Shown piece after piece: positions 34,161 through 63,633 of a stretch of 64,000 bases of DNA. The notes below the pieces were generated by a model. The model worked only from the letters and a program-made list of their open reading frames with translations. It did no database searches and was not told where the DNA came from. The stretch lies in assembly GCA_045586595.1 (NCBI GenBank), contig JAZNAQ010000022.1, positions 1,605-65,604 of the forward strand. The letters are read 5' to 3'. The number at the start of each line of letters is the position of its first letter. The stretch's first letter is position 1. The translations under genes and the position numbers were made by a program. The stretch is from Eubacteriales bacterium. GTDB lineage: Bacteria > Bacillota > Clostridia > Oscillospirales > JAAYXM01.

Positions 34161-34208
34161 AAAAACTGCAACAATAAGAAGCCCTATTACGGGCCCTTAT
34201 TATTGCAG
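34161..34208 (-). terminator. Intrinsic terminator after the GGDEF gene
   Basis: On the minus strand, a roughly 18-bp stem CTGCAATAATAAGGGCCC...GGGCTTCTTATTGTTGCAG followed by U5. Confidence 0.75.
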
Positions 34209-34327
34209 CTGGACTGGCATAGTATAAAACCTTAGCCTCTTGGCTTTGCGTCGCCGACTTTCGCCGGTTTTGCCAAATGTTCAATTTTCACCAGTTTATC
34301 ACACTAAAGCATTTTTGTCAAACACTT

Positions 34328-49255: not shown

Positions 49256-49789
49256 TTAGTCTTTGTAGTTAATTCCGCAGTTGATTGCCTTTAAGTTTAC
49301 TTCTAAAAGGTTTGCGCGCTTTGCAGAAACAACCTTCTTGAGTGAATCCTCAATATTGTCAGTTCTCATGCCGCTTTCCTTCATGAGCTTACCTGTGATA
49401 ATCATGTTTGCGAGCGTCGGTGCCTCCATAGCCTGTGCAAGCTGTGTTGCTGGGATATAGAACACCTTGACGTCGTCTCTCTTAACCTTGCGCTCGATAA
49501 GAGTTGAGTCAACGATAATCATACCGCCGGGTACAACTGCATCCTCATACTTATCAAGTGACGGAAGGTTCATTGCAACAAGAATATCGGGGTTTGAAAC
49601 AATGGGTGAGCCTACAGGGTCATCAGAGAGGATAACGCTGCAGTTTGCTGTGCCGCCGCGCATCTCCGGACCATAGGACGGAAGCCAGCTGAGCTGTTTT
49701 CCCTCAAGAAGGCCTTTATATGCAAGGAACTTACCCGCGAACAGGATGCCCTGGCCTCCAAAGCCCGCTAAAAGCAACTGTGTTGTCAT
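49256..49789 (-). CDS. 2-oxoacid:ferredoxin oxidoreductase, gamma subunit
   Basis: About 177 aa from [20 protein letters not shown]. That start is 2 nt after the beta stop, so the track ORF's 27-codon extension overlaps the beta subunit. Confidence 0.85.
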
Positions 49790-49791
49790 AA

Positions 49792-50544
49792 TTATGCTTC
49801 CTCCTTCTGTGCGCTCTTGTCTCTGTAAACACCGAGCGGATAGTATGGAATCATCTTCTCGTCTACCCACTTGAGAGCGTCATTCGGAGTCATACCCCAG
49901 TTTGTCGGGCAGGTAGAGACAACCTCGATAAGAGAGAATCCCTTTCCCTCAACCTGATTGCGAAACGCCTTGAGAATTGCCTTACCCGCAGCCTTTACAT
50001 TTTTAACGCTGTTTACTGCAACACGCTCAATATACTCAGGTCCGTCGAGAGTTGAGAGCATTTCGCTGACTCTTATCGGGTAGCCTGCTGTTGTTACATC
50101 ACGCCCGTACGGAGATGTCTGAGTTACCTGGCCGGGGAGTGATGTCGGGGCCATCTGGCCTCCGGTCATACCGTAGATTGCGTTATTTACAAATATAACG
50201 GTAATGTTTTCATTACGAGCTGCTGCGTGGACTGTCTCTGCCATACCGATTGAGGCAAGGTCTCCGTCGCCCTGATATGTAAAGATAACATTCTCAGGGA
50301 AAGCTCGCTTAAGGCCCGTTGCGACAGCCGGAGCACGGCCGTGAGCCGCCTCTACCATATCGCATGAAAAGTAATCATATGCCATAACAGAGCATCCGAC
50401 CGGTGCGACACCGATTGTCTTGCCCTCTACGCCGAGTGCGTCAATCGCCTCAGCAACAAGGCGGTGAATAATGCCGTGGGTGCAGCCCGGGCAGTAGTGA
50501 AGCGGTGCGTCTGTTAAGCTTTTCGGTTTTTCAAATACTACCAT
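49792..50544 (-). CDS. 2-oxoacid:ferredoxin oxidoreductase, beta (TPP-binding) subunit
   Basis: 250 aa with YCPGCTHG and the GDGD TPP motif. Confidence 0.88.
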   Translation of the reverse strand: MVVFEKPKSLTDAPLHYCPGCTHGIIHRLVAEAIDALGVEGKTIGVAPVGCSVMAYDYFSCDMVEAAHGRAPAVATGLKRAFPENVIFTYQGDGDLASIGMAETVHAAARNENITVIFVNNAIYGMTGGQMAPTSLPGQVTQTSPYGRDVTTAGYPIRVSEMLSTLDGPEYIERVAVNSVKNVKAAGKAILKAFRNQVEGKGFSLIEVVSTCPTNWGMTPNDALKWVDEKMIPYYPLGVYRDKSAQKEEA

Positions 50545-51605
50545 TAGTTGCTACCTCCCTTGACTTCTTTAATTTTTTCAAGAACCTGCTCAGGTGACGG
50601 AATCATGCCGCCGACGCGGTTACAGAGATGAACAGGCTTTTTGCAGTCTGTTGCAAGGCGGATGTCTTCAATCATCTGGCCCATTGAAAGCTCAACGCTG
50701 ATAAATGCCTGTACCTTATCTGCAGCCTCAGCAAGCGGTGCCTTCGGGAACGGCCATACGGTAATCGGGCGAATCATACCGACCTTTATACCCTCTTTTC
50801 GTGCTGCAACAACTGCGTTCTTTGCAACACGGGCAGCGATACCGAATGCGACAACACAGTACTCTGCATCATCCATCATAAAGCTTTCGTATCTTGCCTC
50901 TGTCTCTTCTATAAGCTTATATCTCTCATAGCGCTCGATATTCTTCTGCTCGAGCTCTTCAGGCTTTAAGTAGAGCGAGTTTATGATGTTATGCTCGCGC
51001 TTCATATCAGTTCCGGTTACTGCCCACGGCTTATCTGTTGTATTAACGCTTTCTTCAGGAAGCTCAACCGGCTCCATCATCTGCCCCATTGTGCCGTCTG
51101 CAAGAAGCATAGCAGGCATACGATATTTTTCGGCAAGCTCAAACGCAAGAGCTGTCATATCAGCCATTTCCTGAACGGATTCAGGTGTAAGGACTATCAT
51201 GCGATAGTCGCCGTGACCTCCGCCCTTTGTTGACTGGAAGTAGTCTGACTGAGACGGCTGGATGCCGCCGAGACCGGGGCCGCCGCGCTGTACGTTAACG
51301 ATAAGTGCCGGAAGGTCTGCACCTGCAATATAGGAGATACCCTCCTGCTTAAGCGAGATACCGGGGCTTGAGGAGGAGGTCATAACACGCTTGCCTGTAC
51401 CCGCAACTCCGTATACCATATTAATAGCCGAGATTTCACTCTCTGCCTGGAGGAATGTCCCCCCGATTTTCGGCATTCTCTTTGCCATGTATGCCGCAAC
51501 CTCTGTCTGCGGTGTTATCGGATAACCGAAGTAATGGCGACAGCCCGCACGGATAGCGGCTTCTGCGATTGCTTCGTTACCTTTCATCAAAACTTTTTCT
51601 GCCAT
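50544..51605 (-). CDS. 2-oxoacid:ferredoxin oxidoreductase, alpha subunit
   Basis: About 353 aa from MAEKVLMKGNEAIAEAA, with RBS GAGGTG 8 nt upstream. Typical VOR/KOR alpha N-terminus. Confidence 0.88.
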   Translation of the reverse strand: MAEKVLMKGNEAIAEAAIRAGCRHYFGYPITPQTEVAAYMAKRMPKIGGTFLQAESEISAINMVYGVAGTGKRVMTSSSSPGISLKQEGISYIAGADLPALIVNVQRGGPGLGGIQPSQSDYFQSTKGGGHGDYRMIVLTPESVQEMADMTALAFELAEKYRMPAMLLADGTMGQMMEPVELPEESVNTTDKPWAVTGTDMKREHNIINSLYLKPEELEQKNIERYERYKLIEETEARYESFMMDDAEYCVVAFGIAARVAKNAVVAARKEGIKVGMIRPITVWPFPKAPLAEAADKVQAFISVELSMGQMIEDIRLATDCKKPVHLCNRVGGMIPSPEQVLEKIKEVKGGSN

Positions 51606-51617
51606 TTTCCGCACACC

Positions 51618-51824
51618 TCACTTTTCTACCTTGATTACGCAGTCCGGGCACATAGTTGCACAGAATGCGCAAGCGATACATTTCTCCTGGTCGGTTATCT
51701 CCGCCGGAGAATGACCCTTTTTGTTGATTTTGTCTTTTGCAAGACGGATTATCCCCTTCGGACAAGCTGTAACACAAAGGCCACAACCCTTACAAATGTC
51801 CGAGTCGAATGTTACCTTAGCCAT
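51618..51824 (-). CDS. 2-oxoacid:ferredoxin oxidoreductase, delta subunit (2x[4Fe-4S] ferredoxin)
   Basis: 68 aa with two CxxCxxCxxxCP motifs. Confidence 0.88.
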   Translation of the reverse strand: MAKVTFDSDICKGCGLCVTACPKGIIRLAKDKINKKGHSPAEITDQEKCIACAFCATMCPDCVIKVEK

Positions 51825-51845
51825 AATAACACTCCTTTTTCTGTA

Positions 51846-52514
51846 TTAAAATAATTTTTCTTGTAATTTGAGTTTAAAGAAAGACGTATTTTGCGCCTGC
51901 TCGCAAAGATTCTTTTCTGATGTTGTCATAACAACGGGAACGCCGGATATTTCCGCAAGTTCTTCAGCAAATGCCAAGGTGTTCACAACATCGTCGATTG
52001 TCGTCTCGACCCCGATATTGGAGTTATTGACAATCCCCGTAAACGGAATCCCCGATGCTGTTTCTATCTCGCGAAAAACCTCAAGCGCTTCTTTTGCCGT
52101 ACGCGTAAGCGGGCGATAGAAGTTTACAACGAACAGGTTTGCAAAGTCGTTCTCTTCTAAAATATACGGACGGTATCTGCCAAGAGCATACGCACCGCGG
52201 TCATCGCCGCCTATGTCCATAACAACCCGGCGGTCTCTCCTCTGCACAAGGCCATAGACCTCCTGCGGAAGCGAGGGCAAATCTACGCTTGTGTTTGCAA
52301 ACGGTAGCGCAATAACCTCAACACCTGCATCGGTAAGCTCTTTTAAGCTATCCTTTGTGCGGAAATACGGATTTACAATATCAATATCAGCGATACTTAC
52401 GGGAAAACCTTTCTCGCTTAAGTGGAGCGCATAGTTTACCGCGATGTTGGTTTTGCCGCTGCCGTAGTGGCCGCAGAAAAGAGTAACTCTTTTATTTAAA
52501 GCGTGATTGTCCAA
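51846..52514 (-). CDS. MinD/CooC-like P-loop NTPase, function unknown
   Basis: 222 aa with a deviant Walker A (GHYGSGKTN). Embedded between ilvE and the delta subunit, overlapping ilvE by 19 nt. Confidence 0.5.
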   Translation of the reverse strand: MDNHALNKRVTLFCGHYGSGKTNIAVNYALHLSEKGFPVSIADIDIVNPYFRTKDSLKELTDAGVEVIALPFANTSVDLPSLPQEVYGLVQRRDRRVVMDIGGDDRGAYALGRYRPYILEENDFANLFVVNFYRPLTRTAKEALEVFREIETASGIPFTGIVNNSNIGVETTIDDVVNTLAFAEELAEISGVPVVMTTSEKNLCEQAQNTSFFKLKLQEKLF

Positions 52515-53563
52515 TTAAACTTATCCTCACACTTGCCCCACTGAATACCTGTGATGGTGTCATAGAGCTTCTGGCTGACCTCGCCTATTGTGTTGTTATT
52601 GATAAGCATAACATCGTCTTTATAACGAAGCTTACCAACCGGCGAGATTACGGCTGCCGTGCCTGTTCCGAAGCACTCTTCAAGCTTGCCGCTCTTCTGT
52701 GCATTTAAAAGCTCCTCAACGCTTATTTTGCGTTCCTCAACCTCATATCCCCAGGACTTACATACCTCAATTACCGAGTTTCTTGTGATACCCGGCAGAA
52801 TGCTGCCGGAGTGCTCCGGGGTTACGATTTTGCCGTCAATCTTAAAGAAGATGTTCATAGCACCGACTTCTTCGATGTACTTTCTCTCTACACCGTCAAG
52901 CCAGAGAACCTGTGAATAGCCCTCGTCGTGAGCCTTGACCTGAGCCGCAAGAGAAGCTGCGTAGTTACCGCCTGTCTTTGCAAAGCCCATACCGCCCTTG
53001 ACAGCGCGGACATAGTCGTCTTCAATCCAGATACCTACAGGAGCAAGGCCGCTTGCGTAATATGCGCCTGACGGAGAAAGGATGATGATAAAGAGATATG
53101 TCTTTGACGGTGCAACACCGAGGAACTCGTCTGTTGCGATGATAAACGGTCTTATGTAGAGCGATGTGCCGGGGGCTGTGGGTATCCAATCCTCATCAAC
53201 CTTGACAACTGCTTTACATGCCTCTACAAAAAGCTCCTCAGGAAGCTGAGGGATGCAAAGACGCTCGTTTGTGGCGTTTGTTCTCTTTGCGTTCATATCA
53301 GGTCTGAAAAGGCGAGCCTTTCCGTCACGTCCTCTGTATGCCTTAAGGCCTTCAAACATTTCCTGACCGTAGTGGAAAACCATTGCGGACGGGTCGAGAG
53401 AGAGCTTCTCATACGGGACTATTCTCCCGTCGTGCCAGCCTTTTCCCTCGGTATAGTTCATAACAAACATATGGTCTGTAAACACCTTGCCAAAGCCGAG
53501 CTTTGACTCATCTTCTGGTCGCTGTTTAGGATTTGTTGTTTTTGTTATCGGAAAATTATACAT
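52496..53563 (-). CDS. ilvE: Branched-chain amino acid aminotransferase
   Basis: 355 aa, fold-type IV PLP enzyme (long IlvE form) with motifs FEGLKAY, GGNYAASL and GITR. Confidence 0.9.
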   Translation of the reverse strand: MYNFPITKTTNPKQRPEDESKLGFGKVFTDHMFVMNYTEGKGWHDGRIVPYEKLSLDPSAMVFHYGQEMFEGLKAYRGRDGKARLFRPDMNAKRTNATNERLCIPQLPEELFVEACKAVVKVDEDWIPTAPGTSLYIRPFIIATDEFLGVAPSKTYLFIIILSPSGAYYASGLAPVGIWIEDDYVRAVKGGMGFAKTGGNYAASLAAQVKAHDEGYSQVLWLDGVERKYIEEVGAMNIFFKIDGKIVTPEHSGSILPGITRNSVIEVCKSWGYEVEERKISVEELLNAQKSGKLEECFGTGTAAVISPVGKLRYKDDVMLINNNTIGEVSQKLYDTITGIQWGKCEDKFNWTITL

Positions 53564-53588: not shown

Positions 53589-55877
53589 TCACAGCTTATT
53601 TCTCTGAATCTTTCCGCTTACTGTCTTGGGCAGCTCGTCACGGAATACGACGAGGCGCGGATATTTATACGGAGCTGTATGCTCTTTAACATAGTTCTGA
53701 ATCTCTTTCTTGAGTTCTTCTGTAGGCTCTGTGCCCTTTGTAAGAACGATACTTGCCTTTACTATCTGGCCGCGAACCTCATCAGGTGCTGCAGAAACGC
53801 CACACTCAAGGACGTACGGAAGCTCCATGATAACGCTTTCAATCTCAAACGGCCCGATGCGGTAGCCGGATGACTTGATAACGTCATCAACACGGCCGAC
53901 ATACCAATAGAAGCCGTCCTCATCACGCCATGCGGTATCTCCTGTGTGATAGTATCCGTCGTGGAGAACCTCAAGAGTTTTTTCCTCGTCGCGGTAGTAC
54001 TCAACAAAGAGGCCGCAGGGCTTGCCGTTCTTTACGTTAATTACGATTTCGCCGGTCTCACCGACAGCTACGGGCTCGCCTTTGTCATTTACAAGCTCAA
54101 CATTGTATATCGGAGCAGGCTTACCCATAGAACCAATTTTGTGCGGAGCACCTATCATGTTACCGATAATCATTGTGCTCTCTGTCTGGCCAAAGCCCTC
54201 AATTATCTGAAGGCCTGTTGCCTTTTCAAATTGCTTATAGACCTCGGGGTTTAAAGCCTCGCCCGCTGTTGACATATGCTTGACAGACGAGAAGTCATAC
54301 TGCGAAATATCTTCTTTAACAAGCATACGAAGCATTGTAGGCGGTGCGCAGAAGGTCGTGATGTTATGACGCGCAAACATCGGAAGAATTTCTTTCGCAT
54401 CAAAGCGGTCAAAGTCATAAACGAATATTGCCGCCTCGCAAAGCCACTGGCCGTAGAGCTTACCCCACATAGACTTTGCCCAGCCTGTATCTGAAATTGT
54501 GAAGTGTAGCCCATCAGGGTCAACATTGTGCCAATACTTTGCTGTATGGAAGTGACCGAGCGGATATTTATGGTTGTGTGCCGCAATCTTCGGGTATCCG
54601 GTAGTGCCGGATGTAAAGAACATCAGAAGCAAATCATCGCCGCACGGTGAATCATCGTTTCTTTCAAAGTGTGAGCTGTATAGCGGGTACTCGTCAGCAA
54701 AGCTTCTCCAACCCTCACGCTCGCCACCGACTATAATCTTATGTATAAGCTCAGGGCAGGTCTTTGCCGCCTCATCTACCTGTGCGGTACACTCTCCGTC
54801 TGCCGTGCAGAGGATTGTGTTTACGCCCGCCGCCTGAAAACGATACTCAAAGTCATGAACCTGAAGCTGGTTTGTGGCGGGGATAGCGATTGCGCCGAGC
54901 TTATTAAGACCAATCATAGCATACCAGAATTCGTAATGACGCTTCAGTACGAGCATAACTCTGTCGCCTTTTTTGATACCGAGTGACTTAAAGTAGTTTG
55001 CGCATCTTGCTGATTCACGCTTTACATCCTCAAAAGTAATGCGGCGTTCTACTTTATTCTTGTCGATATGAAGCATCGCAAGCTTATCAGGCTCGCGTTC
55101 TGCCAAAGCATCTACAAGGTCGAAAGCAAAGTTAAAGTTTTCGGTGTTTTTAAACTCAATCTTTGTAGGTGTTCCCTTTTCGTTCTCTTCAACAGAAATA
55201 TACTTACGGTAAATTCTGTCCTTAGTGTCACGCTTGACCTCGCGGGGATCGTCGATAGCTTTTATCGGAGTAAGCTCAGGAATGGGCTCACCTGACGGAT
55301 TCAAAACGATTGCATAGAAAACACAATCACGACCGTTTACGGCAATCATACCGTGTGGGGTATTACTGTCAAAGTAAATGCTGTCACCCGCGCGGAGAAC
55401 CTCGCGGTGCTCGCCTATCTGAACCATAAGCTCGCCCTCAACGACTATGTCACACTCCTGACCATCGTGAGTGGTAAGCTCAATATCGCGGTTTTGCGCG
55501 CTCTCATCATAAGCACATCTGACGTAGAGCGGCTCTGCGATTCTGTTCTGAAAAGCATATGCAAGGTTATAATATGTCATGCCATGAGCATTTGCTATTT
55601 CCTGCCCCAAACCGTTTCTTGTAACCGTAAACGATTTAAGAGTAGGGCTGTAGCCCTCAATAATATCTGTTACGTTAACACGCAATGCAAGCGCGCAACG
55701 GTAAAGGAATGCAAAGTTAAGGTCTTGCTTGCCTTCTTCACACAAAATATACTCTTCAACCGAAACATCGGTCTTTTCGGCCATCTCTGCCGGGGTCAAC
55801 CCCTCAATCTCACGAAGTTCGCGTATACGAGATGCCATCTCTTGAATTTTGTAGTCAAGTCCTGATATAGGTTGCAT
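53589..55877 (-). CDS. XRE-HTH + cupin + medium/short-chain acyl-CoA synthetase (AMP-forming) fusion, paralog 1 (behind the Val T-box)
   Basis: 762 aa from ATG 55877 (MQPISG..., RBS GAAAGGATGG). HTH (LTPAEMAEKTDVSVEEY), cupin (GDSIYFDSNTPHGMIA), then AMP-binding motifs FTSGTTGYPK, YHTGDTAWRDEDGFYWYVGRVDDVIKSSGYRIGPFEIE and SGKIQR. Confidence 0.85.
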   Translation of the reverse strand: MQPISGLDYKIQEMASRIRELREIEGLTPAEMAEKTDVSVEEYILCEEGKQDLNFAFLYRCALALRVNVTDIIEGYSPTLKSFTVTRNGLGQEIANAHGMTYYNLAYAFQNRIAEPLYVRCAYDESAQNRDIELTTHDGQECDIVVEGELMVQIGEHREVLRAGDSIYFDSNTPHGMIAVNGRDCVFYAIVLNPSGEPIPELTPIKAIDDPREVKRDTKDRIYRKYISVEENEKGTPTKIEFKNTENFNFAFDLVDALAEREPDKLAMLHIDKNKVERRITFEDVKRESARCANYFKSLGIKKGDRVMLVLKRHYEFWYAMIGLNKLGAIAIPATNQLQVHDFEYRFQAAGVNTILCTADGECTAQVDEAAKTCPELIHKIIVGGEREGWRSFADEYPLYSSHFERNDDSPCGDDLLLMFFTSGTTGYPKIAAHNHKYPLGHFHTAKYWHNVDPDGLHFTISDTGWAKSMWGKLYGQWLCEAAIFVYDFDRFDAKEILPMFARHNITTFCAPPTMLRMLVKEDISQYDFSSVKHMSTAGEALNPEVYKQFEKATGLQIIEGFGQTESTMIIGNMIGAPHKIGSMGKPAPIYNVELVNDKGEPVAVGETGEIVINVKNGKPCGLFVEYYRDEEKTLEVLHDGYYHTGDTAWRDEDGFYWYVGRVDDVIKSSGYRIGPFEIESVIMELPYVLECGVSAAPDEVRGQIVKASIVLTKGTEPTEELKKEIQNYVKEHTAPYKYPRLVVFRDELPKTVSGKIQRNKL

Positions 55878-55905: not shown

Positions 55906-56191
55906 AAAAAGCACTCGTCCCAAAGCTGATAATCTTTGAGACGAGTGTCAGAATTTCTAATACACCCGCGGTACCACTCAAATTGCGCTTTACGCGCCAC
56001 TCAGACTCAAACAAGCCGTATGCATTTACGCAGCAGTCACGGAAAGGTTCTACTCGCCTTATATAAGACTTTCTTCCTCTCAGCTCAGAAGCTACAGACA
56101 CAAGTAACAATGCCGATAGTTCACACCCACCACTATCTCTCTGAAGGACTGTACACTCACGCTCTCTTCGTCAACGCCTTTATATTCATTT
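55906..56191 (-). promoter_or_regulatory. T-box riboswitch, specifier GUA (Val)
   Basis: Promoter TTGACA (56226-56221), 17 nt spacer, TATAAT (56203-56198). Stem I has the GA motif UUGACGAAG, AGAGAG bulge and a GGUG distal loop. Specifier loop GUCU-GUA-G-CUUC (codon at plus 56093-56095). CCGUGA F-box. T-box UUUGAGUGGUACCGCGGG (55965-55984). Terminator CACUCGUC...GACGAGUG plus U5 (55906-55947). Confidence 0.85.
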
Positions 56192-56278
56192 GTGGTTATT
56201 ATATATCAGTCAAGGGAATTTGTCAATACCTATTTGTGGCATATTATGAGTTTTTATGCGAGTTTTTGCGATTATCTA

Positions 56279-58546
56279 TCAAAGTTTATTCCTCTGAATT
56301 TTACCGCTTATTGTCTTGGGGAGTTCATCACGGAATACAACAAGGCGCGGGTATTTATACGGCGCTGTATGCTCCTTGACGTAGTTCTGGATTTCTTTCT
56401 TAAGCTCTTCCGTCGGCTCCGTCCCCTTTGTAAGAACAATGCTTGCCTTTACAATCTGACCGCGGAGCTCATCGGGAGCTGCAGAAACGCCGCACTCGAG
56501 AACATACGGAAGCTCCATAATGACACTCTCAATCTCACACGGCCCGATGCGGTAACCGGATGATTTGATAACATCGTCAATTCGGCTGACATACCAGAAA
56601 TAGCCGTCCTCATCACGCCATGCGGTATCTTCTGTGTGGTACATTCCGCCACGCATACACTCTTCCATTTTTTCTTCATCATCAAGATACTGTCTGAAGA
56701 GGCCAACAGGAGTTCCGTTATCAAGGCGTACAACAATTTCACCGACCTCACCATTTGCAACCGGGTTGCCGTCGAGGTCAACAATATCAATATCATACTG
56801 CGGAGATGCCTTGCCCATTGCGCCTACGCGCGGAGTCGTACCATAGAGGTTTGCGATAACAAGGGTTGTTTCTGTTTGGCCGAAGCCCTCCATTATCTTA
56901 AGGCCTGTTGCCTTTTCAAATTGCTTATACACTTCGGGGTTGAGTGCCTCTCCTGCTGTTGTCATATGGTGGATGGAGGAAAGGTCGTATTTTGAAAGGT
57001 CTTCTTTTATGAACATACGAAGCATTGTTGGCGGCGCGCAGAAGGTTGTGATGTTGTATTTTGCAAACATCGGGAGAATTTCGTTTGCAGAAAAGCGGTC
57101 AAAGTCGTAAACGAATACTGCCCCCTCGCAGAGCCATTGGCCATAGAGCTTACCCCAGAGGGATTTGCCCCAGCCTGTGTCAGAGATTGTAAAGTGGAGC
57201 CCATCACGCTCGCAGCAGTGCCAGTATTTTGCAGTCACAAAGTGACCAAGGCCGTATGTGTGCTTATGCTCGACCATTTTCGGGTTACCTGTTGTTCCCG
57301 ACGAGAAGAACATAAGAGCCGCCTCATCGCCGCAGGGGGTATCATCGCTTCTGTCAAAGTGGCTTGAGAACATTGCATATTCGCTGTCAAAATCATGCCA
57401 GCCATCGCGATGACCGCCGACAAGTACAAGAGTTTTTACACTCGGGCATTTCTTTGCTGCAGCCTCTGCGATTGTAGCCGTATCATCATCAGCGGTGCAG
57501 ACAACAGCCTTTACGTTTGCCGCCTCATAGCGGTATACAAAGTCGTGGTCCTTAAGCTGATGTGTTGCAGGGATTGCAACAGCACCGAGCTTATGAAGCG
57601 CAACCATCGCAAACCAGAACTGATAATGGCGCTTGAGAACAAGCATTACGCGGTCACCCTGACCGATGCCGAGTGACTTGAAATAGTTTGCACATCGTGC
57701 CGATTCTTTTCTTATATCATCAAATGTAAAGCGGCGCTCAACCATGTTCTTGTCAACATGGAGCATCGCAAGCTTATCGGGAGTTTTCTTTGCAATTTCG
57801 TCGACAACATCGAAGCCGAAGTTGAATGTATCAGTATTCATAAACTCGATTTTTTCGAGTACGCCCGGCTCGCTCTCTGTACATTTTACAAACTTCTCAC
57901 ACGCGAGCTTTGTTGCCGGACGAAGAGATACAACGCTCTCGCGCACTTCTTCTTCCTTTGCATCCTCTCCAGGGAGAACTACTGCACAGAATACGCAGTC
58001 TTCACCGTTTACAGCTATCATACCGTGCGGTGTGGAGCTGTTATAGTAGATGCTGTCACCCTCGCTTAAAACTTCGGTGTGAGTGCCGACCTGAACCTTG
58101 AGCGAGCCCTTGAGAACGAGGTCAAACTCCTGCCCGCTATGCTTTGTAAGGTGTATCGGCTTATTCTGCTGCTCCTCAGAGTATTCATATCTTACCCAAT
58201 AGGGCTCAGCTATTTTGTTTTTAAACTTCGGGGCAAGGTTTGAAATGCTGATACCCTCCTCTTTAGCCGTCTCCTGCCCCTTGCCCTTACGAGTTACGGT
58301 GTAAGAGGAAAGATGCGCCGTGCGGCCCTCCAAAAGTTCTGTAAGCTCAATACCAAAGGCAAGCGCGCATTTGTGAAGAAACGAGAACGGCATATCCGCC
58401 GCACCGTTTTCGAACTTTTTGTATTCATCAAGTGTTACTTCGGTTTTCTCTGCCATCTGGTTTGCAGTCATACCCATAACCTCACGCATCTCACGGATGC
58501 GGGCTGCAACCTCGCCGAGTTGTGTCATAGTTTTTTCTGTGCTCAT
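56279..58546 (-). CDS. XRE-HTH + cupin + acyl-CoA synthetase (AMP-forming) fusion, paralog 2 (behind the Ile T-box)
   Basis: 755 aa from ATG 58546 (MSTEKT..., RBS AAAGGAG). Same architecture as paralog 1, with the C-terminal ~85 aa nearly identical. Confidence 0.85.
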   Translation of the reverse strand: MSTEKTMTQLGEVAARIREMREVMGMTANQMAEKTEVTLDEYKKFENGAADMPFSFLHKCALAFGIELTELLEGRTAHLSSYTVTRKGKGQETAKEEGISISNLAPKFKNKIAEPYWVRYEYSEEQQNKPIHLTKHSGQEFDLVLKGSLKVQVGTHTEVLSEGDSIYYNSSTPHGMIAVNGEDCVFCAVVLPGEDAKEEEVRESVVSLRPATKLACEKFVKCTESEPGVLEKIEFMNTDTFNFGFDVVDEIAKKTPDKLAMLHVDKNMVERRFTFDDIRKESARCANYFKSLGIGQGDRVMLVLKRHYQFWFAMVALHKLGAVAIPATHQLKDHDFVYRYEAANVKAVVCTADDDTATIAEAAAKKCPSVKTLVLVGGHRDGWHDFDSEYAMFSSHFDRSDDTPCGDEAALMFFSSGTTGNPKMVEHKHTYGLGHFVTAKYWHCCERDGLHFTISDTGWGKSLWGKLYGQWLCEGAVFVYDFDRFSANEILPMFAKYNITTFCAPPTMLRMFIKEDLSKYDLSSIHHMTTAGEALNPEVYKQFEKATGLKIMEGFGQTETTLVIANLYGTTPRVGAMGKASPQYDIDIVDLDGNPVANGEVGEIVVRLDNGTPVGLFRQYLDDEEKMEECMRGGMYHTEDTAWRDEDGYFWYVSRIDDVIKSSGYRIGPCEIESVIMELPYVLECGVSAAPDELRGQIVKASIVLTKGTEPTEELKKEIQNYVKEHTAPYKYPRLVVFRDELPKTISGKIQRNKL

Positions 58547-58597
58547 TGCATTTTCTCCTTTCAAATTAAAAACCTTAAAATTTTTAATTGAATAACA

Positions 58598-58879
58598 AAG
58601 ACTCGTCTCAAAGCTTTTATACTTTGAGACGAGCCGAATAAACTATATCCGATACCCGCGGTACCACTCAAATTGCGCTTTACGCGCCACTCAGGCTCAA
58701 ACAAGCCTTATGCATTAACGCAGCAATCACGGAAAGCGTCTACTCGTCAAATCAAACTTTCGGGCTTCCAGCTCAGAAGTGATAGGCAAAAAACATTTCG
58801 CTACCGGGATTACACCGTCCCCGACTCTCTGTAAGCTACCTTGCTTTTCCGTCTTCGTCATAGCCTTTGCTATTCAATT
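58598..58879 (-). promoter_or_regulatory. T-box riboswitch, specifier AUC (Ile)
   Basis: Promoter TTGACA (58914-58909), 17 nt spacer, TAAACT (58891-58886). Stem I has AUGACGAAG, AGAGAG and a GGUGUAA distal loop. Specifier loop GCCU-AUC-A-CUUC (plus 58781-58783). T-box UUUGAGUGGUACCGCGGG (58655-58674). Terminator GGCUCGUCUCAAAG...CUUUGAGACGAGUC plus U run (58598-58635). Confidence 0.85.
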
Positions 58880-58924
58880 GAATACAGTTTACACCTGTTT
58901 TTTCTCTTTGTCAAGACCTTTTTG

Positions 58925-61384
58925 TTATTTTTTAAGACCAAGAATTTTCTCTGATTCCTCACGCATTTTATATTTAAGAATCTTACCCGCGGCGTTCATT
59001 GGGAACTCATTGACAAACAAGAAATATCTCGGCACCTTATGGCGCGCGATAGACGCGTTTCCGAACTCGCGCATCTCTGCCTCGTCGGAGGTTTCGCCCT
59101 TATGGAGAATAATCCACGCGCAACATTCCTCACCGTAACGCTCATCGGGAACTCCTACAATCTGAACATCTCGTATCTTCGGATTTGTCAGGTAGAACTC
59201 CTCAATTTCACGCGGATAGAGGTTTTCGCCACCGCGGATAATCATGTCCTTAAGTCGGCCTGTTACCTTATAATATCCGTCAGGCGTACGGCAACAAATA
59301 TCACCGGAGTGAAGCCAGCCGTCAGCATCAATAGTCTGTGCTGTTGCGTTGGGCATTTTGTAGTAGCCCTTCATTATGTTAAAGCCTCGCGCAACAAACT
59401 CGCCGCTCTCACCGTCAGGAAGCTCCTCACCCGTTTCAGGATCAATGACCTTACACTCAACACCCGGGAAAGCACTTCCGACAGTCTCGACCCTGTGGTC
59501 GAGGTCTTCATTAACCTCTCCCATGGTACAGCCGGGAGAAGCCTCAGTCTGGCCGTAAACGGAGATAATCTCGCGCATATTCATCTCAACAGAGGCACGG
59601 CGCATAAGGTCAGCAGGGCAGTTTGCTCCCGCCATGATGCCCGTACGCATATATGAAAAATCTGTCTTTTCAAAGTCAGGGTGGTTAAACATTGCGATAA
59701 ACATAGTAGGAACACCGTTAAAGCATGTGATATGCTCATCGTTAACGCACGCAAGTGACGATTTCGGTGAGAAGTACGGCATCGGGCAAAGCGTGCCGCC
59801 GTGAGTCATCATTGACGTCATCGAAAGCACCATTCCGAAGCAGTGGAACATCGGCACCTGAATCATCATTCGATCGGCAGTGGAAAGGTCCATCCTGTCA
59901 CCGATTGTCTTGCCGTTGTTTACAATATTTCTGTGTGTGAGCATAACGCCCTTCGGGAAACCGGTTGTACCTGAGGTGTATTGCATATTACATACATCGT
60001 CAGGCTTTACCATTGATGCACGACGGCGTACCTCCTCCTTCGGAACAAGTGCCGCGCGGTCAAGCATCTGCCCCCATGTAAGACAGCCGTGCATAGAGAA
60101 GCCAGCAGTAACAACATTGCGTAAAAACGGCAACTTTTTTGAGTAAAGCGCATCGCCCGGCTTCATATTTTCAAGCTCGGGGCAAAGCTCCTGGATGATT
60201 TCGCGGTAGTTTATATCCTTGCAGTCCTCAATCATAACAAGTGTATGGGTGTCAGACTGCTTTAGCAGATACTCAATCTCGTGGATTTTATATGCTGTAT
60301 TAACTGTTACAAGAACTGCCCCTATTTTAGTTGTTGCCCAGAAGGTTATGAACCACTGAGGAACATTTGTAGCCCATACTGCAACATGGTCGCCCGCTTT
60401 TACGCCGAGCGAAATAAGCGCCGCAGCGCACTCGTCGACATCACGCCGAAACTGTGAATATGTCCTTGTATAGTCGAGCGTAGTATACTTAAACGCATAC
60501 TGGTCAGGATAAGTCTCCGCCATGGTATCAAGCACCTGCGAGAAGGTCTTATCTATAACATCATACTTTTTCCATACAAATGTGCCTGTTCCCGCACGGT
60601 TATAATACAACTTATCATACTCTTTCTTCTCGCGTGAAAGGTTTGCAATATAGTTTGCAAAATGAGTAAGAACGATGTCTGCATCATTTATCTCGTCATT
60701 CCATGCAACCGATACAAAGCCGTCGAAGTTAAGAGACGAAAGTGCGTTTATAAACTCGGTTACAGGAAGAGAGCCTTCACCGATGAGGACGTTTTGTCCG
60801 TCCTTCTTATCGCCGAGGCGTACATACTTAATATATGCGCCAAGGTTTGTAATTGTTTTCTCCGCGCTCTCGCCTGCGCCGAAGTATGTTTCGCGGACAT
60901 TCCATGACGCGCCAACTACTGCAGAAGAAAAGAAATTGATAATATCAATGACATTCTCGGTTGCAGAGAGGTGTCCTGCAGTTTCAAGAAGAATCTGAAT
61001 ATCTGTTTCTTCAGCGCGTTTGATTGCCGGAGCGAGCTTTTTTGAAAGTTCTTCGTTTGACATTTTCTCCTCTATCCTGAGGATAATGCGCTCAACACCG
61101 GCGCTTGAAGCCATATTGACATATTTGAGTATTTCATCTGCGCTTGCATAATCACTTCCTGCATCATGAGGATATACAAGAGCGGATACCTCAAGCCCGC
61201 GATTTACGAGTTTTCTCTTTGCATCGGCCACTCTGTCACTGCGGAGAATGCTGTCGTAGTGCTTCTTTCTTTCACCAAGAGCGTCATAAATCTCAAACCC
61301 CGAATAACCGTAGTCATATGCATAACGACACATATCGAGAAACGACGGGCGGTTTACATTTTTTGTCGAAAAGGTAAGCTTCAT
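58925..61384 (-). CDS. Xylose-isomerase-like TIM-barrel domain fused to a FadD-type AMP-forming acyl-CoA ligase
   Basis: 819 aa from ATG 61384 (MKLTFSTK; RBS GAGGAGGA lies inside the upstream gene's end). The N-terminal ~260 aa are AP-endonuclease-2/sugar-isomerase-like. The C-terminal part carries YTSGTTGFPKGV, YGQTE, GWLHSGD and RGGENLYPREIE. Confidence 0.75.
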   Translation of the reverse strand: MKLTFSTKNVNRPSFLDMCRYAYDYGYSGFEIYDALGERKKHYDSILRSDRVADAKRKLVNRGLEVSALVYPHDAGSDYASADEILKYVNMASSAGVERIILRIEEKMSNEELSKKLAPAIKRAEETDIQILLETAGHLSATENVIDIINFFSSAVVGASWNVRETYFGAGESAEKTITNLGAYIKYVRLGDKKDGQNVLIGEGSLPVTEFINALSSLNFDGFVSVAWNDEINDADIVLTHFANYIANLSREKKEYDKLYYNRAGTGTFVWKKYDVIDKTFSQVLDTMAETYPDQYAFKYTTLDYTRTYSQFRRDVDECAAALISLGVKAGDHVAVWATNVPQWFITFWATTKIGAVLVTVNTAYKIHEIEYLLKQSDTHTLVMIEDCKDINYREIIQELCPELENMKPGDALYSKKLPFLRNVVTAGFSMHGCLTWGQMLDRAALVPKEEVRRRASMVKPDDVCNMQYTSGTTGFPKGVMLTHRNIVNNGKTIGDRMDLSTADRMMIQVPMFHCFGMVLSMTSMMTHGGTLCPMPYFSPKSSLACVNDEHITCFNGVPTMFIAMFNHPDFEKTDFSYMRTGIMAGANCPADLMRRASVEMNMREIISVYGQTEASPGCTMGEVNEDLDHRVETVGSAFPGVECKVIDPETGEELPDGESGEFVARGFNIMKGYYKMPNATAQTIDADGWLHSGDICCRTPDGYYKVTGRLKDMIIRGGENLYPREIEEFYLTNPKIRDVQIVGVPDERYGEECCAWIILHKGETSDEAEMREFGNASIARHKVPRYFLFVNEFPMNAAGKILKYKMREESEKILGLKK

Positions 61385-61385
61385 C

Positions 61386-62774
61386 TTAATCCTCCTCAAA
61401 CACTATCTTATTCAGCGCGTTGATATACGCTCTGATGCTTGCTGCCACAATATCAGTAGAGATTCCGTTGCCGGAATAGAGTTTTCCATCCACGCGAAGC
61501 TTTACAACAGCCGAGCCAAGAGCCTCCTTGCCCTCAGTAACGGCATGGATCTGGAAATCGTCAAGCTCATAGTGATAGCCTATGCACTGTTCTATTGCAC
61601 GAAATGCTGAGTCTACAGCGCCGTCACCCATACTTACGCCGCAGAGAATTTCGTCACCGCACTTGAGCGTAACCTGTGACATGGCACTTGTGAGATTGCC
61701 GCAGTTTGTGGTGTAGCTCTCAAGGTGATATGTTGACGGTGCCTGCATGGCAGAGCTTGCTATAAGTGCCTCAAGCTCCTTCGCGCCGACTGTGCTCTTC
61801 TTCTCGCATACCTGCACAAGAGCACGGTATACATTTCCGTTATCCTCATCGGAAAGGTCATATCCGAGAACCTTTGCAGCCTGTGCAACATCTGAAAGCG
61901 TACTGTCGCAATCAAGAACGATTTTTTTCTTCTCACTTGCAGCATCTGCGCTCTCGTAAGCATCATGATTTATCTTTCGGAGCATCTCATCTACACTTGA
62001 ATGTATCTGGGTAGCTACAATAGAAGTGGATATGCCGAGAGCTTCGCCTCTTGCGCTTATTGCGTCAGAGAGCTCGCCTACAGACAAAACATTCTTTCCT
62101 GCCATCGCACACTTAAGCCCGTCAGCCCCTGCCTTTACCGCAGCAATAGCAGTTGCAACAGCCATATTGATACTGTCGGATACCTGAACATATACCGATG
62201 TGTTTACCTGAGCCTTTATTGCAGCGGTAAGCTCTGCAATCTCCTCAGGAAGTGAAACTCCGGCGTCGTCGCAGATAGTTACGATTCCTGCGCCGCTTGC
62301 CTCAGCCGCTTTAACTGCATTAATAATGAAGTCACGGTCTGCACGAGTTGCATCAAGTGCAACAAATTCGACATCGGGGCAGAATTTCTTTGCCTCGGCT
62401 ACAAGCTCTTCAATCTTTGTAAGCATCTTATCTGCCTTGAGATGATATATATACTCCATCTGCACCGTAGAAGTAGGGAGGGCTACCTGAAGGCGCGGCT
62501 TTGCTGCATCTTTTATACACTCCCATGCGACAGACACCTCGTCTGCCGTAAAGCCGACAGGGAGAGCGACTGCGCTGCTTTTAACGTTTGATGCAATCGT
62601 TTTATAAATAATTGTATCCTCGCGAACATTCTTTATTGGCGCAAGCTCAACAGCATCCGCACCGAGAGAATCTGCACACGCCGCTATAGCTGTTTTCTCT
62701 CTGAAGAGCAGTGAAACCTCACGGTCTTGTGAAAGCTCCTTTAACGTGATGTCAGTAACTAAAATTTTCTTCAT
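61386..62774 (-). CDS. 2-isopropylmalate synthase (LeuA) homolog lacking the catalytic and metal-binding residues but retaining the C-terminal LeuA regulatory domain
   Basis: 462 aa, collinear with recalled B. subtilis LeuA. DTTLRDGEQ is replaced by DITLKELSQ, HCHDD by QVSDS, and GIGERAGN by GKNVLSVG. The C-terminus (TEGKEALGSAVVKL...GISTDIVAASIRAYINALNKI) matches the LeuA_dimer domain. Confidence 0.7.
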   Translation of the reverse strand: MKKILVTDITLKELSQDREVSLLFREKTAIAACADSLGADAVELAPIKNVREDTIIYKTIASNVKSSAVALPVGFTADEVSVAWECIKDAAKPRLQVALPTSTVQMEYIYHLKADKMLTKIEELVAEAKKFCPDVEFVALDATRADRDFIINAVKAAEASGAGIVTICDDAGVSLPEEIAELTAAIKAQVNTSVYVQVSDSINMAVATAIAAVKAGADGLKCAMAGKNVLSVGELSDAISARGEALGISTSIVATQIHSSVDEMLRKINHDAYESADAASEKKKIVLDCDSTLSDVAQAAKVLGYDLSDEDNGNVYRALVQVCEKKSTVGAKELEALIASSAMQAPSTYHLESYTTNCGNLTSAMSQVTLKCGDEILCGVSMGDGAVDSAFRAIEQCIGYHYELDDFQIHAVTEGKEALGSAVVKLRVDGKLYSGNGISTDIVAASIRAYINALNKIVFEED

Positions 62775-62820: not shown

Positions 62821-63127
62821 AAAACGCTTTCATCTCTTTGTTATCCTTTAATAACTCAAAGAGACGAAAGCGTTAAAACTCAAGTATTTAAACCTTTCGC
62901 GGTACCACTCTTTTTCATCCTACGGCGAGGATGCACCTCAGGTGCTGACACACCTTGACTCTGTTACGGGAGCTCCCGTCCGCCCCTACTCTCTTTCAAT
63001 TTCACGGCAGCCGCTCCGTGGTGAGTTCAACGAGGCTAACCCAATGCCTTGCACCAACCGGCATCTCTCTGCGCGGGTATAAGCTTTTCGCATACTATTC
63101 CACATCATCGCGTTTGTTTTCAATTTG
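62821..63127 (-). promoter_or_regulatory. T-box riboswitch, specifier CUC (Leu)
   Basis: Promoter TTGACA (63162-63157), 17 nt spacer, TATAAT (63139-63134). Stem I has GCGAUGAUGUGG, the AGUA S-turn, AGAGAG and a GGUGCAA distal loop. Textbook specifier loop GAA-CUC-A-CCAC (plus 63023-63025). T-box AGAGUGGUACCGCGAAAGG (62896-62912). Terminator AACGCUUUC...GAAAGCGUU plus U4 (62821-62874). Confidence 0.9.
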
Positions 63128-63186
63128 GTAAACATTATATCACTGCATTTTTTGTTTGTCAACAGTTTTCAAAAAATTTTATTAAC

Positions 63187-63633
63187 CTAATTCGCGGCTT
63201 GTGTGTTAGATATTATTTCAATCAGTTTTTCATAAAAGCTATTATCCTGCTCTTTTGTGCGCTTGGGCGGGCCTTTGAGCCTGCCGCCTGCGTTTCTTAT
63301 TTTCTTTGCAGTATGGCGAGCAAGAAGCAGAGCGTCAATATTCTCATTTGTGTACTCAAGCCCATCCTGGTTTATACACACTGCCCCTCGAGAGAGCGCC
63401 ATAGAAGCAAGACCGTAGTCCTGCGTTATCACAACGTCACCTTTCGAAACAAAGTTTACAAGGGCAAAGTCCGCACTGTCTGCTCCCTTAGGAACAACAT
63501 GGGTCTCTGCACCGTTTTTATCAAATATATGTGCGGTATCACAAAATATGTGGCAGTCTTTTTTTAAGCTTTGCGCCGCTTTTATCGCAATATCAACAAC
63601 CGGGCATCCGTCGGCATCTATAAGCACTCGCAC
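63187..63633 (-). CDS. YaiI/YqxD (UPF0178, DUF188) family protein
   Basis: 148 aa with the family-typical MRVLIDADGCPVV N-terminus. Confidence 0.78.
   Translation of the reverse strand: MRVLIDADGCPVVDIAIKAAQSLKKDCHIFCDTAHIFDKNGAETHVVPKGADSADFALVNFVSKGDVVITQDYGLASMALSRGAVCINQDGLEYTNENIDALLLARHTAKKIRNAGGRLKGPPKRTKEQDNSFYEKLIEIISNTQAAN

Follow-up and report, generated by a model that had tools for sequence, protein, structure and literature searches.

What does a xylose-isomerase-like triose-phosphate isomerase (TIM) barrel do at the front of an acyl-coenzyme A (CoA) ligase whose gene stands behind a leucine-specific T-box? The question is raised by a minus-strand gene at 58925-61384 of a 64,000-nt stretch of contig JAZNAQ010000022.1 (assembly GCA_045586595.1). 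We analyzed this stretch as a whole and refer to it as the window; unless a related locus is named, coordinates below are positions in it. An earlier note, made from the sequence alone, described this gene as a fusion of a metal-dependent barrel with a ligase under Leu control, proposed isovalerate as the substrate, and considered an extra isomerization or decarboxylation step. We find that the fusion is a real, widely conserved gut-bacterial protein, and that it belongs to a module in which a LeuA-like pseudoenzyme and a remodeled barrel-ligase are encoded together under a Leu T-box. The reading that we favor, at a probability of roughly 0.5, is that the ligase would be an isovalerate:CoA ligase under the Leu T-box and that the metal-less barrel would be a non-catalytic module for docking or ligand binding, joining it to a LeuA-like leucine sensor.

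A barrel-ligase fusion conserved in gut bacteria

The fusion gene and its parts, with the evidence on which each is defined, are as follows.

58925..61384, minus strand: whole gene, encoding a TIM-barrel/acyl-CoA-ligase fusion protein of 819 aa (open reading frame [ORF], three Pfam domains, architecture and length kept in relatives)
60635..61384, minus strand: xylose-isomerase-like TIM barrel, residues 1-250 (PF01261, AlphaFold2, Foldseek, ligand-column alignments, dN/dS)
60560..60634, minus strand: interdomain linker, residues 251-275, with the fusion-specific motif YYNRAGTGTFVWKKYD (motif conservation, alignment to the ligase of the related locus L082, low predicted local distance difference test [pLDDT] score)
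58925..60559, minus strand: complete adenylate-forming acyl-CoA ligase, residues 276-819, FadD/ACSF2/PRK12583-like (PF00501 and PF13193, NCBIfam, PDB sequence matches)

The true start of the gene is the ATG at 61384, which has the ribosome-binding site GAGGAGG 6 nt before it, within the 3' end of a LeuA-like gene, and the stop is at 58925. The TTG at 61399 is only a mechanical ORF start; all homologs of the fusion open with MKL. A domain scan with Pfam hidden Markov models placed three domains on this one ORF: PF01261 (AP_endonuc_2) at residues 20-231 (E 1.7e-13, 51.3 bits against a cut-off of 31.1), PF00501 at residues 287-675 (E 1.4e-95, 320.7 bits) and PF13193 at residues 726-801 (51.4 bits). 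The N-terminal part is thus a TIM barrel, as the earlier note had proposed, and the same ORF recurs in relatives. The second half of that proposal, a complete adenylate-forming ligase, holds as well. Both of its domains score above threshold and the core motifs are in place, namely A3 (YTSGTTGFPKG), A5 (YGQTE), A8 (RLKDMIIRGGENLYPREIE) and A10 (NAAGKILK, with the catalytic lysine), together with GD...RLKDMIIRGGENLYP, so that the protein belongs to the ANL adenylate-forming acyl-CoA synthetases; its PDB sequence matches are all ANL ligases. The best NCBIfam match of the ligase is PRK12583 (NF009233, "fatty acid CoA ligase family protein"), to which it scores 664.7 bits, below the membership cut-off of 832, whereas both ligase paralogs encoded downstream match MbcS best. 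This agrees with the earlier assignment of the fused ligase to a different subfamily from the two paralogs. The motifs quoted in the earlier note were all found in the translation.

The architecture is widespread. In a search space of 5.8 billion proteins, more than 120 protein clusters are 84-100% identical to the fusion, all of them 818-824 aa long and carrying its three domains; their sources are metagenome-assembled genomes (MAGs) of Oscillospiraceae, Ruminococcaceae and Clostridia, and the only name given to them is "AMP-binding protein". A profile-free search with the barrel alone returned 536 representatives at 50% clustering. Among the best of them, nearly all are fusions with a common linker motif, YYN(R/K)AGTGxFVWKK, often truncated at the end of a contig, and full-length fusions with the linker motif reach down to approximately 30% barrel identity. 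We also scanned one genome per GTDB species, using a 6-sequence alignment (an 18-sequence alignment contained no stretch conserved enough). Matches were found in at least 582 stretches, and we inspected the best 80 of these (L001-L080). They belong to MAGs of Acutalibacteraceae, Oscillospiraceae or "Eubacteriales", mostly from the guts of ruminants and other animals. An uninterrupted TIM-ligase ORF of 815-840 aa is present in all 80 of these species-level genomes, with identities to the window protein of 34-78% in the barrel and 67-95% in the ligase.

The earlier note had also raised the prospect that the long ORF is really two genes with a sequencing frameshift between them, and we considered an assembly frameshift as well. 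Barrel and ligase are indeed called as separate or overlapping genes in the low-quality assemblies L081, L084, L085 and L086, and in L082 they are truly two genes in reversed order, with the ligase first. This separate ligase aligns to the fusion only from residue ~276 on, which matches the position of the linker, where pLDDT is low at residues 253-257 of the AlphaFold2 model. L082 is the only clear two-gene arrangement of barrel and ligase; the barrel match P0378 sits in an unrelated context, and three apparently stand-alone TIM matches (P0298, P0297 and P0361) were rejected as frameshifted or overlapping TIM-ligase genes. Against an artifact stand the conserved linker motif and the uninterrupted ORF in 80 independent species genomes and more than 120 clusters, as well as the composition, which is even over the barrel-ligase junction. 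Because a single ORF is kept in so many clusters and genomes, the fusion is neither a chance joining nor a frameshift. That reading is refuted by these clusters and genomes, and we regard its probability as negligible.

Leucine control and the LeuA-like partner

The fusion gene is preceded by three further elements on the same strand.

61386..62774, minus strand: LeuA-like pseudoenzyme, 462 aa, with an HMGL-like barrel and a LeuA_dimer domain (Pfam, NCBIfam, motif alignments, locus survey)
62857..63117, minus strand: Leu T-box leader (specifier CUC) of the LeuA-like and fusion genes (RF00230)
63134..63162, minus strand: sigma-70 promoter of the Leu T-box operon, TTGACA-17-TGnTATAAT (12/12 consensus match)

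The LeuA-like gene stops 1 nt before the ATG of the fusion. In 78 of the 80 loci the fusion is immediately preceded by this same gene, the remaining two loci being cut by a contig end, and the spacer between the two genes is most often 1 nt (41 loci), with a 4-nt overlap in seven loci. The two genes are co-transcribed and translationally coupled, the fusion being the second gene of a two-gene operon. Leu control, which the earlier note had assumed, was confirmed: the leader matches RF00230 over its full length at 107 bits, against a cut-off of 93, and its specifier CUC is followed by A. With both genes behind a Leu-specific T-box, the operon is therefore switched on when tRNA-Leu is uncharged.

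This control is a conserved property of the pair. Of 73 leaders examined before the LeuA-like gene, 62 contain the T-box core motif (those of 61 related loci and the window), and cmscan identified a T-box in this position in four further loci. The specifier is CUC wherever it can be read in related leaders, including loci with only 34-38% barrel identity; for diverged leaders it was taken from the cmscan alignments. The leader of L008 has CCC (Pro) in the specifier position of an otherwise near-identical leader (GAACCCACC vs GAACUCACC), explained either by a sequencing error or by a one-base change of the specifier. Three loci (L060, L075 and L079) are arranged differently: genes for an HTH-cupin ligase (HTH, helix-turn-helix), a P-loop protein, the alpha, beta and gamma subunits of a 2-oxoacid:ferredoxin oxidoreductase (OFOR) and a branched-chain aminotransferase (BCAT) form one long same-strand array in which the LeuA-like gene and the fusion come last. 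No T-box motif was found directly before the LeuA-like gene in these three loci, and cmscan of the whole L060 and L075 loci found no T-box. Leu-specific control therefore appears to be absent from these arrays or to be placed elsewhere.

The earlier note did not flag the LeuA-like partner, which public records list as "hypothetical protein". The purpose of the barrel is probably to be understood through this protein. It has the regulatory LeuA_dimer domain of LeuA (PF08502, positions 4-130 of 131, 106.6 bits, E 1e-30), but falls below every NCBIfam cut-off for LeuA, citramalate and homocitrate synthases, with a best LeuA score of 256 against 532. In an alignment to solved LeuA structures, the catalytic motif DTTLRDGEQ is changed to DITLKELSQ and HxH to V-S-D, and the Arg/Asp pair and HxH are missing from all 80 loci. 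By catalytic motifs and equivalog-level score it is not a 2-isopropylmalate synthase, and the LeuA_dimer domain is its only intact functional part. The family is large: of the candidates scored, 7167 proteins reach E<=1e-10. Two other ideas about this protein were rejected. One was a role in reversed leucine degradation, resembling HMG-CoA lyase, which the loss of Arg, Asp and HxH in all loci speaks against. The other was that P0230 is a LeuA-TIM-ligase "Rosetta stone"; this protein is a chimera with internal deletions, in which LeuA residues 1-116 are joined to TIM residues 171-273 and a ligase with a gap.

The remodeled metal site of the barrel

AlphaFold2, given a 121-sequence alignment, produced a confident barrel model for residues 1-290 (mean pLDDT 92.7); single-sequence prediction of the full protein was unusable (pLDDT 36.8). 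Foldseek matched the barrel model to UlaE, ketose 3-epimerases (DTE), AsbF, IolI and YcjR with template modeling (TM) scores of 0.65-0.73, a probability of 1.00 and approximately 15% identity. The barrel has the (beta/alpha)8 fold in addition to its PF01261 membership. Judged by this model, the fold assignment is secure, and a close solved relative of the barrel is lacking among the matches. We set the metal-ligand columns by alignments to MJ1311, SCO6571, IolI and AsbF and by family alignments. In the window barrel, the canonical E-D-H-E columns read E134-N162-R189-A227.

60983-60985, minus strand: E134, in ILLETAG; ligand column 1, Glu kept
60899-60901, minus strand: N162, in SWNVRET; ligand column 2, Asp replaced by Asn
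60818-60820, minus strand: R189, in YVRLGD; ligand column 3, His replaced by Arg
60704-60706, minus strand: A227, in VSVAWN; ligand column 4, Glu replaced by Ala

The second-shell His of "DxxH" is replaced by Glu165, and two conserved arginines, Arg164 and Arg189, are now in the former metal pocket. The motif NVRETYF marks the site where the Asp and His ligands would be expected. Checking for retention of the metal ligands, as the earlier note had suggested, shows that only the first Glu of the Glu-Asp-His-Glu set that characterizes enzymes of this superfamily is kept, and that Asp, His and the second Glu are lost. The description of the barrel as metal-dependent consequently does not apply to the query lineage, in which, to judge from these ligand columns, the barrel is not a metal-dependent isomerase. 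With three of the four canonical ligands replaced, the additional metal-dependent isomerization or decarboxylation that the earlier note had considered is unlikely here. Even at E 0.01, the window barrel had no match among the NCBIfam families; faint matches to fructoselysine 3-epimerase and hydroxypyruvate isomerase were still obtained with less diverged relatives.

The ligands have not been lost by random decay, because the residues that replace them are nearly invariant over L001-L059 (WN[VI]R, YVRLGD and [AV]AWN) and the ratio of nonsynonymous to synonymous substitution rates (dN/dS, Nei-Gojobori) is only 0.05-0.07 in the barrel; it is 0.01-0.04 in the ligase. Comparison with more distant relatives suggests when the change occurred. 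TIM-ligase pairs, either fused or adjacent, were found in seven loci (L081-L087) whose fetched sequence contains no LeuA-like gene. Barrel-ligase fusions, some of them frameshifted, are present in L081 and L084-L087, and the separately encoded ligase of L082 is 52% identical to the window ligase. No T-box was found in L081 and L082, the two partner-less loci scanned for RNA families. All seven barrels keep the full canonical site (ETNG / WDxHHPYR / VHxKDS / SLEW), and the distant relatives that do have the LeuA-like partner (L060-L080) keep E-(D/N)-H-E, with the second-shell His mostly changed to Tyr. The ligands thus form a gradient from the full site in partner-less loci, through E-(D/N)-H-E in distant partnered loci, to E-N-R-A in the query clade. 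The contexts shared by the partner-less loci gave no hint of the ancestral substrate. Since TIM-ligase pairs exist without the LeuA-like gene, the original job of the barrel was apparently not leucine-specific, and it may have been catalytic. This distribution suggests that the association of barrel and ligase is older than the leucine module, that the ancestral barrel of the pair was probably an active enzyme, and that its metal site was probably remodeled after the pair had been recruited beside the LeuA-like protein. Together, the partnered and partner-less loci offer a clean natural series in which the loss of the metal site of an enzyme domain, following its recruitment to a new partner, can be studied.

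Function of the module and its relation to known systems

The assignment of a substrate also depends on the genes that follow the fusion, which comprise two further ligase units and a set of pathway genes that together span 49256..53563 on the minus strand.

58886-58914, minus strand: promoter-like site of the Ile unit, which starts the next transcription unit
58622..58870, minus strand: sub-threshold T-box leader with specifier AUC (Ile) (RF00230, 79.8 bits, E 6e-17)
58600-58635, minus strand: terminator of the Ile unit (hairpin)
56279..58564, minus strand: HTH-cupin-MbcS-like acyl-CoA synthetase 1, Ile unit (Pfam; MbcS as best NCBIfam match)
56198-56226, minus strand: promoter of the Val unit (12/12 match)
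55934..56183, minus strand: sub-threshold T-box leader with specifier GUA (Val) (RF00230, 79.6 bits, E 7e-17)
55912-55947, minus strand: terminator of the Val unit (hairpin)
53589..55877, minus strand: HTH-cupin-MbcS-like acyl-CoA synthetase 2, Val unit (Pfam; MbcS as best NCBIfam match)
52496-53563, minus strand: class IV (branched-chain) aminotransferase (BCAT) (Pfam)
51846-52514, minus strand: ParA/NUBPL-like P-loop protein (Pfam)
50544-51614, minus strand: OFOR alpha (Pfam)
49792-50544, minus strand: OFOR beta (Pfam)
49256-49870, minus strand: OFOR gamma (Pfam)

The Ile and Val T-boxes, which the default Rfam scan misses, were found by a relaxed-threshold search of intergenic regions. Above-threshold T-boxes with the Ile specifier AUC, read from alignments, stand at the corresponding site in L025, L029 and L062; T-boxes above threshold are also present there in L070, L073 and L077, the AUC readings being limited to the first three loci. 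The mechanical start of synthetase 2, a GTG at 56000 that would give 803 aa, falls inside the Val T-box, and the true start is almost certainly the ATG at 55877, for a protein of ~762 aa as in its homologs. Synthetase 1 is a predicted 2-methylbutyrate ligase and synthetase 2 a predicted isobutyrate ligase. The ParA/NUBPL-like protein may be a factor that delivers Fe-S clusters to the OFOR. In other genomes, the ligase and pathway genes turn up near the LeuA-like/fusion pair without a fixed order or orientation: the fetched flanks of 43 of the 80 loci contain at least one pathway gene or HTH-cupin-ligase gene (HTH-cupin ligase in 37, P-loop protein in 24, OFOR in 14 and BCAT in 13), many of these flanks being short contigs. 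Both MbcS-like synthetases carry an XRE-type HTH and a cupin domain at the N terminus, an unusual placement of a DNA-binding and sensor module on an enzyme, which is kept in the 37 loci with an HTH-cupin ligase and may serve autoregulation or the sensing of the amino acid or the acid.

Based on its regulation and gene context, the fusion ligase is most likely a leucine-starvation-induced isovalerate:CoA ligase. We assign isovalerate to it because T-boxes for Leu, Ile and Val front three ligases beside an OFOR and a BCAT. In the proposed route, the fusion ligase would convert isovalerate, ATP and CoA to isovaleryl-CoA, the OFOR would reductively carboxylate this thioester to 4-methyl-2-oxopentanoate (ketoisocaproate), and the class IV aminotransferase would form leucine from it, while the MbcS-like ligases under the Ile and Val T-boxes would feed 2-methylbutyrate and isobutyrate into the same route. 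Leucine synthesis by carboxylation of isovalerate and subsequent amination has been described in rumen microbes (PMC7356843). Purified MbcS of Staphylococcus aureus activates 2-methylbutyrate and isobutyrate, and isovalerate is a poor substrate for it (PMC10026030); a distinct type of ligase on the Leu branch would be expected because MbcS-type enzymes handle isovalerate poorly. The cluster logic by which the earlier note had arrived at isovalerate is strengthened by the Ile (AUC) and Val (GUA) T-boxes before the MbcS-like ligases, and it fits the substrate preference of MbcS (PMC10026030).

The weakest step of the proposal concerns the barrel, which would serve as a docking or ligand-binding module coupling the ligase to the LeuA-like protein, the latter acting as a leucine sensor that provides feedback control of isovaleryl-CoA formation. 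This is the most economical role for the barrel because of the two arginines in its pocket, the strong constraint on its sequence and its coupling to a LeuA_dimer protein. A more specific version, which we offer as speculation and consider rather unlikely, is that the LeuA-like pseudoenzyme and the metal-less barrel form a complex that makes the ligase allosterically sensitive to free leucine, with the HTH-cupin domains playing an analogous part on the Ile and Val ligases. If true, it would be a previously undescribed form of amino acid feedback on a scavenging ligase, in addition to T-box control. Full-text literature searches turned up no account of a fusion between a TIM barrel and an AMP-binding ligase, nor of branched-acid ligases under T-box control.

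Several observations weigh against an isovalerate ligase with a docking barrel. The ligase is below the cut-off of its nearest NCBIfam model, PRK12583, which is itself functionally uncharacterized; the pairing of TIM barrel and ligase also occurs in lineages whose fetched loci have no LeuA-like gene; the sole apparent LeuA-TIM fusion protein, P0230, is a deletion chimera; and the substituted pocket is strongly conserved, which might just as well reflect a new catalytic activity. In the last case, the remodeled pocket (Glu134, Asn162, Arg164 and Arg189) would act on a leucine-related acid or thioester, either without a metal or with a different metallation, for example by enolization or tautomerization, hydration or hydrolysis, and the fusion would channel two consecutive reactions. 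The strong purifying selection on the barrel and the near invariance of the substituted residues in L001-L059 are compatible with such an enzyme, as are the intact catalytic-type site of its relatives and the association of barrel and ligase over wide evolutionary distances, which is the usual sign of linked chemistry. However, three of the four ligands that define catalysis are gone, the two replacements with a side-chain function being Asn and Arg; only the less diverged relatives match NCBIfam enzyme families, and those faintly; and the route from isovalerate to leucine needs no added step. We consider an active barrel unlikely for these reasons, on a par with the allosteric complex described above.

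A third possibility leaves the barrel aside and changes the substrate. The ligase could act on another acid, such as isocaproate, 2-hydroxyisocaproate, a straight medium-chain acid or a dicarboxylate, with leucine homeostasis served in some other way. The uncharacterized state of PRK12583 and the sub-threshold match to it leave room for this, as do orthologue-level ligases (52% identity) that occur outside any Leu regulon and the fact that our full-text searches found no paper on the fusion ligase. The one-to-one correspondence of three ligases with Leu, Ile and Val T-boxes beside OFOR and BCAT genes argues otherwise, as do the poor activity of MbcS-type enzymes on isovalerate and the retention of the Leu specifier over diverged loci, and we judge a different substrate to be improbable. 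Slightly less probable again is that the barrel is an inactivated relic, kept for folding, solubility or oligomerization of the ligase without a specific ligand or partner, and that the LeuA-like protein works independently of it. The catalytic ligands are lost, and in amino-acid terms the barrel evolves 3-4 times faster than the ligase (34-78% against 67-95% identity), both of which would suit a relic; but WNVR, YVRLGD and AAWN are conserved instead of drifting, the loss of ligands tracks the gain of the LeuA-like partner, and the LeuA-like and fusion genes are coupled and directly adjoining in nearly all loci.

Rumen and gut Clostridia build Leu, Ile and Val from isovalerate, 2-methylbutyrate and isobutyrate, as has been known since the 1960s. 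To our knowledge, the genes of the step that activates these branched acids have not been pinned down so far. The module described here offers a testable set: three ligases, each behind its cognate T-box, next to an OFOR and a transaminase. Its Leu branch is an unusual three-part device, consisting of the LeuA-like pseudoenzyme, the remodeled barrel and the ligase, that has at least 582 matching stretches among the GTDB species genomes. Its pieces carry only the annotations "AMP-binding protein" and "hypothetical protein". Because feed is supplemented with branched-chain volatile fatty acids, it is of practical value to know which organisms carry the module.

Other elements of the neighborhood were noted. 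A DUF188 (YaiI/YqxD) gene at 63187-63633 on the minus strand lies just upstream of the Leu T-box promoter and is also found in L001, L002, L015, L016 and L026. A c-di-GMP-I riboswitch at 34201-34284 on the minus strand (62.5 bits) is unrelated to the fusion module, and so are an HD-GYP-type HD domain protein (45579-48359) and a DUF2194/DUF2334 gene cluster, both located between this riboswitch and the fusion. A lysine riboswitch in L064 (1206-1379, minus strand), a few kb from the module, is probably unrelated.

Among characterized proteins, the job proposed for the fusion ligase most resembles that of S. aureus MbcS (PMC10026030), an ATP-dependent CoA ligase for short branched-chain acids that scavenges them from outside. 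Unlike the fusion, MbcS has no N-terminal barrel, LeuA-like partner or T-box, and it feeds the synthesis of fatty acids, not of amino acids; the fusion ligase is also of another ANL subfamily (PRK12583/FadD-like). By BLAST, the window's own MbcS-like ligases are 22-23% identical to P0230, a fragmentary relative of the fusion. The barrel shares its fold and the first ligand Glu with UlaE (3CQJ), ketose 3-epimerases, IolI (1I60) and AsbF (3DX5); it departs from such metal-dependent xylose-isomerase-like barrels in its Asn, Arg and Ala ligand columns, its fusion to a ligase and its context, which has no connection to sugar metabolism.

A precedent for a xylose-isomerase-fold barrel acting directly before an adenylate-forming enzyme is found in petrobactin synthesis, where AsbF, a 3-dehydroshikimate dehydratase of this fold and one of the Foldseek matches, makes an acid that is then activated by the adenylating AsbC. 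In that system the barrel and the adenylating enzyme are separate polypeptides, AsbF depends on a metal and its chemistry is aromatic; the window locus has no relation to shikimate or siderophores. The partner protein has the two-domain layout of LeuA and a full-length LeuA_dimer domain, but not the Arg/Asp of DTTLRDGEQ or the HxH. In LeuA itself, leucine exerts its feedback through the C-terminal regulatory domain. Finally, the leader resembles those of other Firmicutes T-box operons in its canonical RF00230 architecture, Leu codon specifier and terminator/antiterminator, and differs from them in its cargo, which is an acid-scavenging ligase with a pseudoenzyme in place of leuABCD, an aminoacyl-tRNA synthetase or a transporter.

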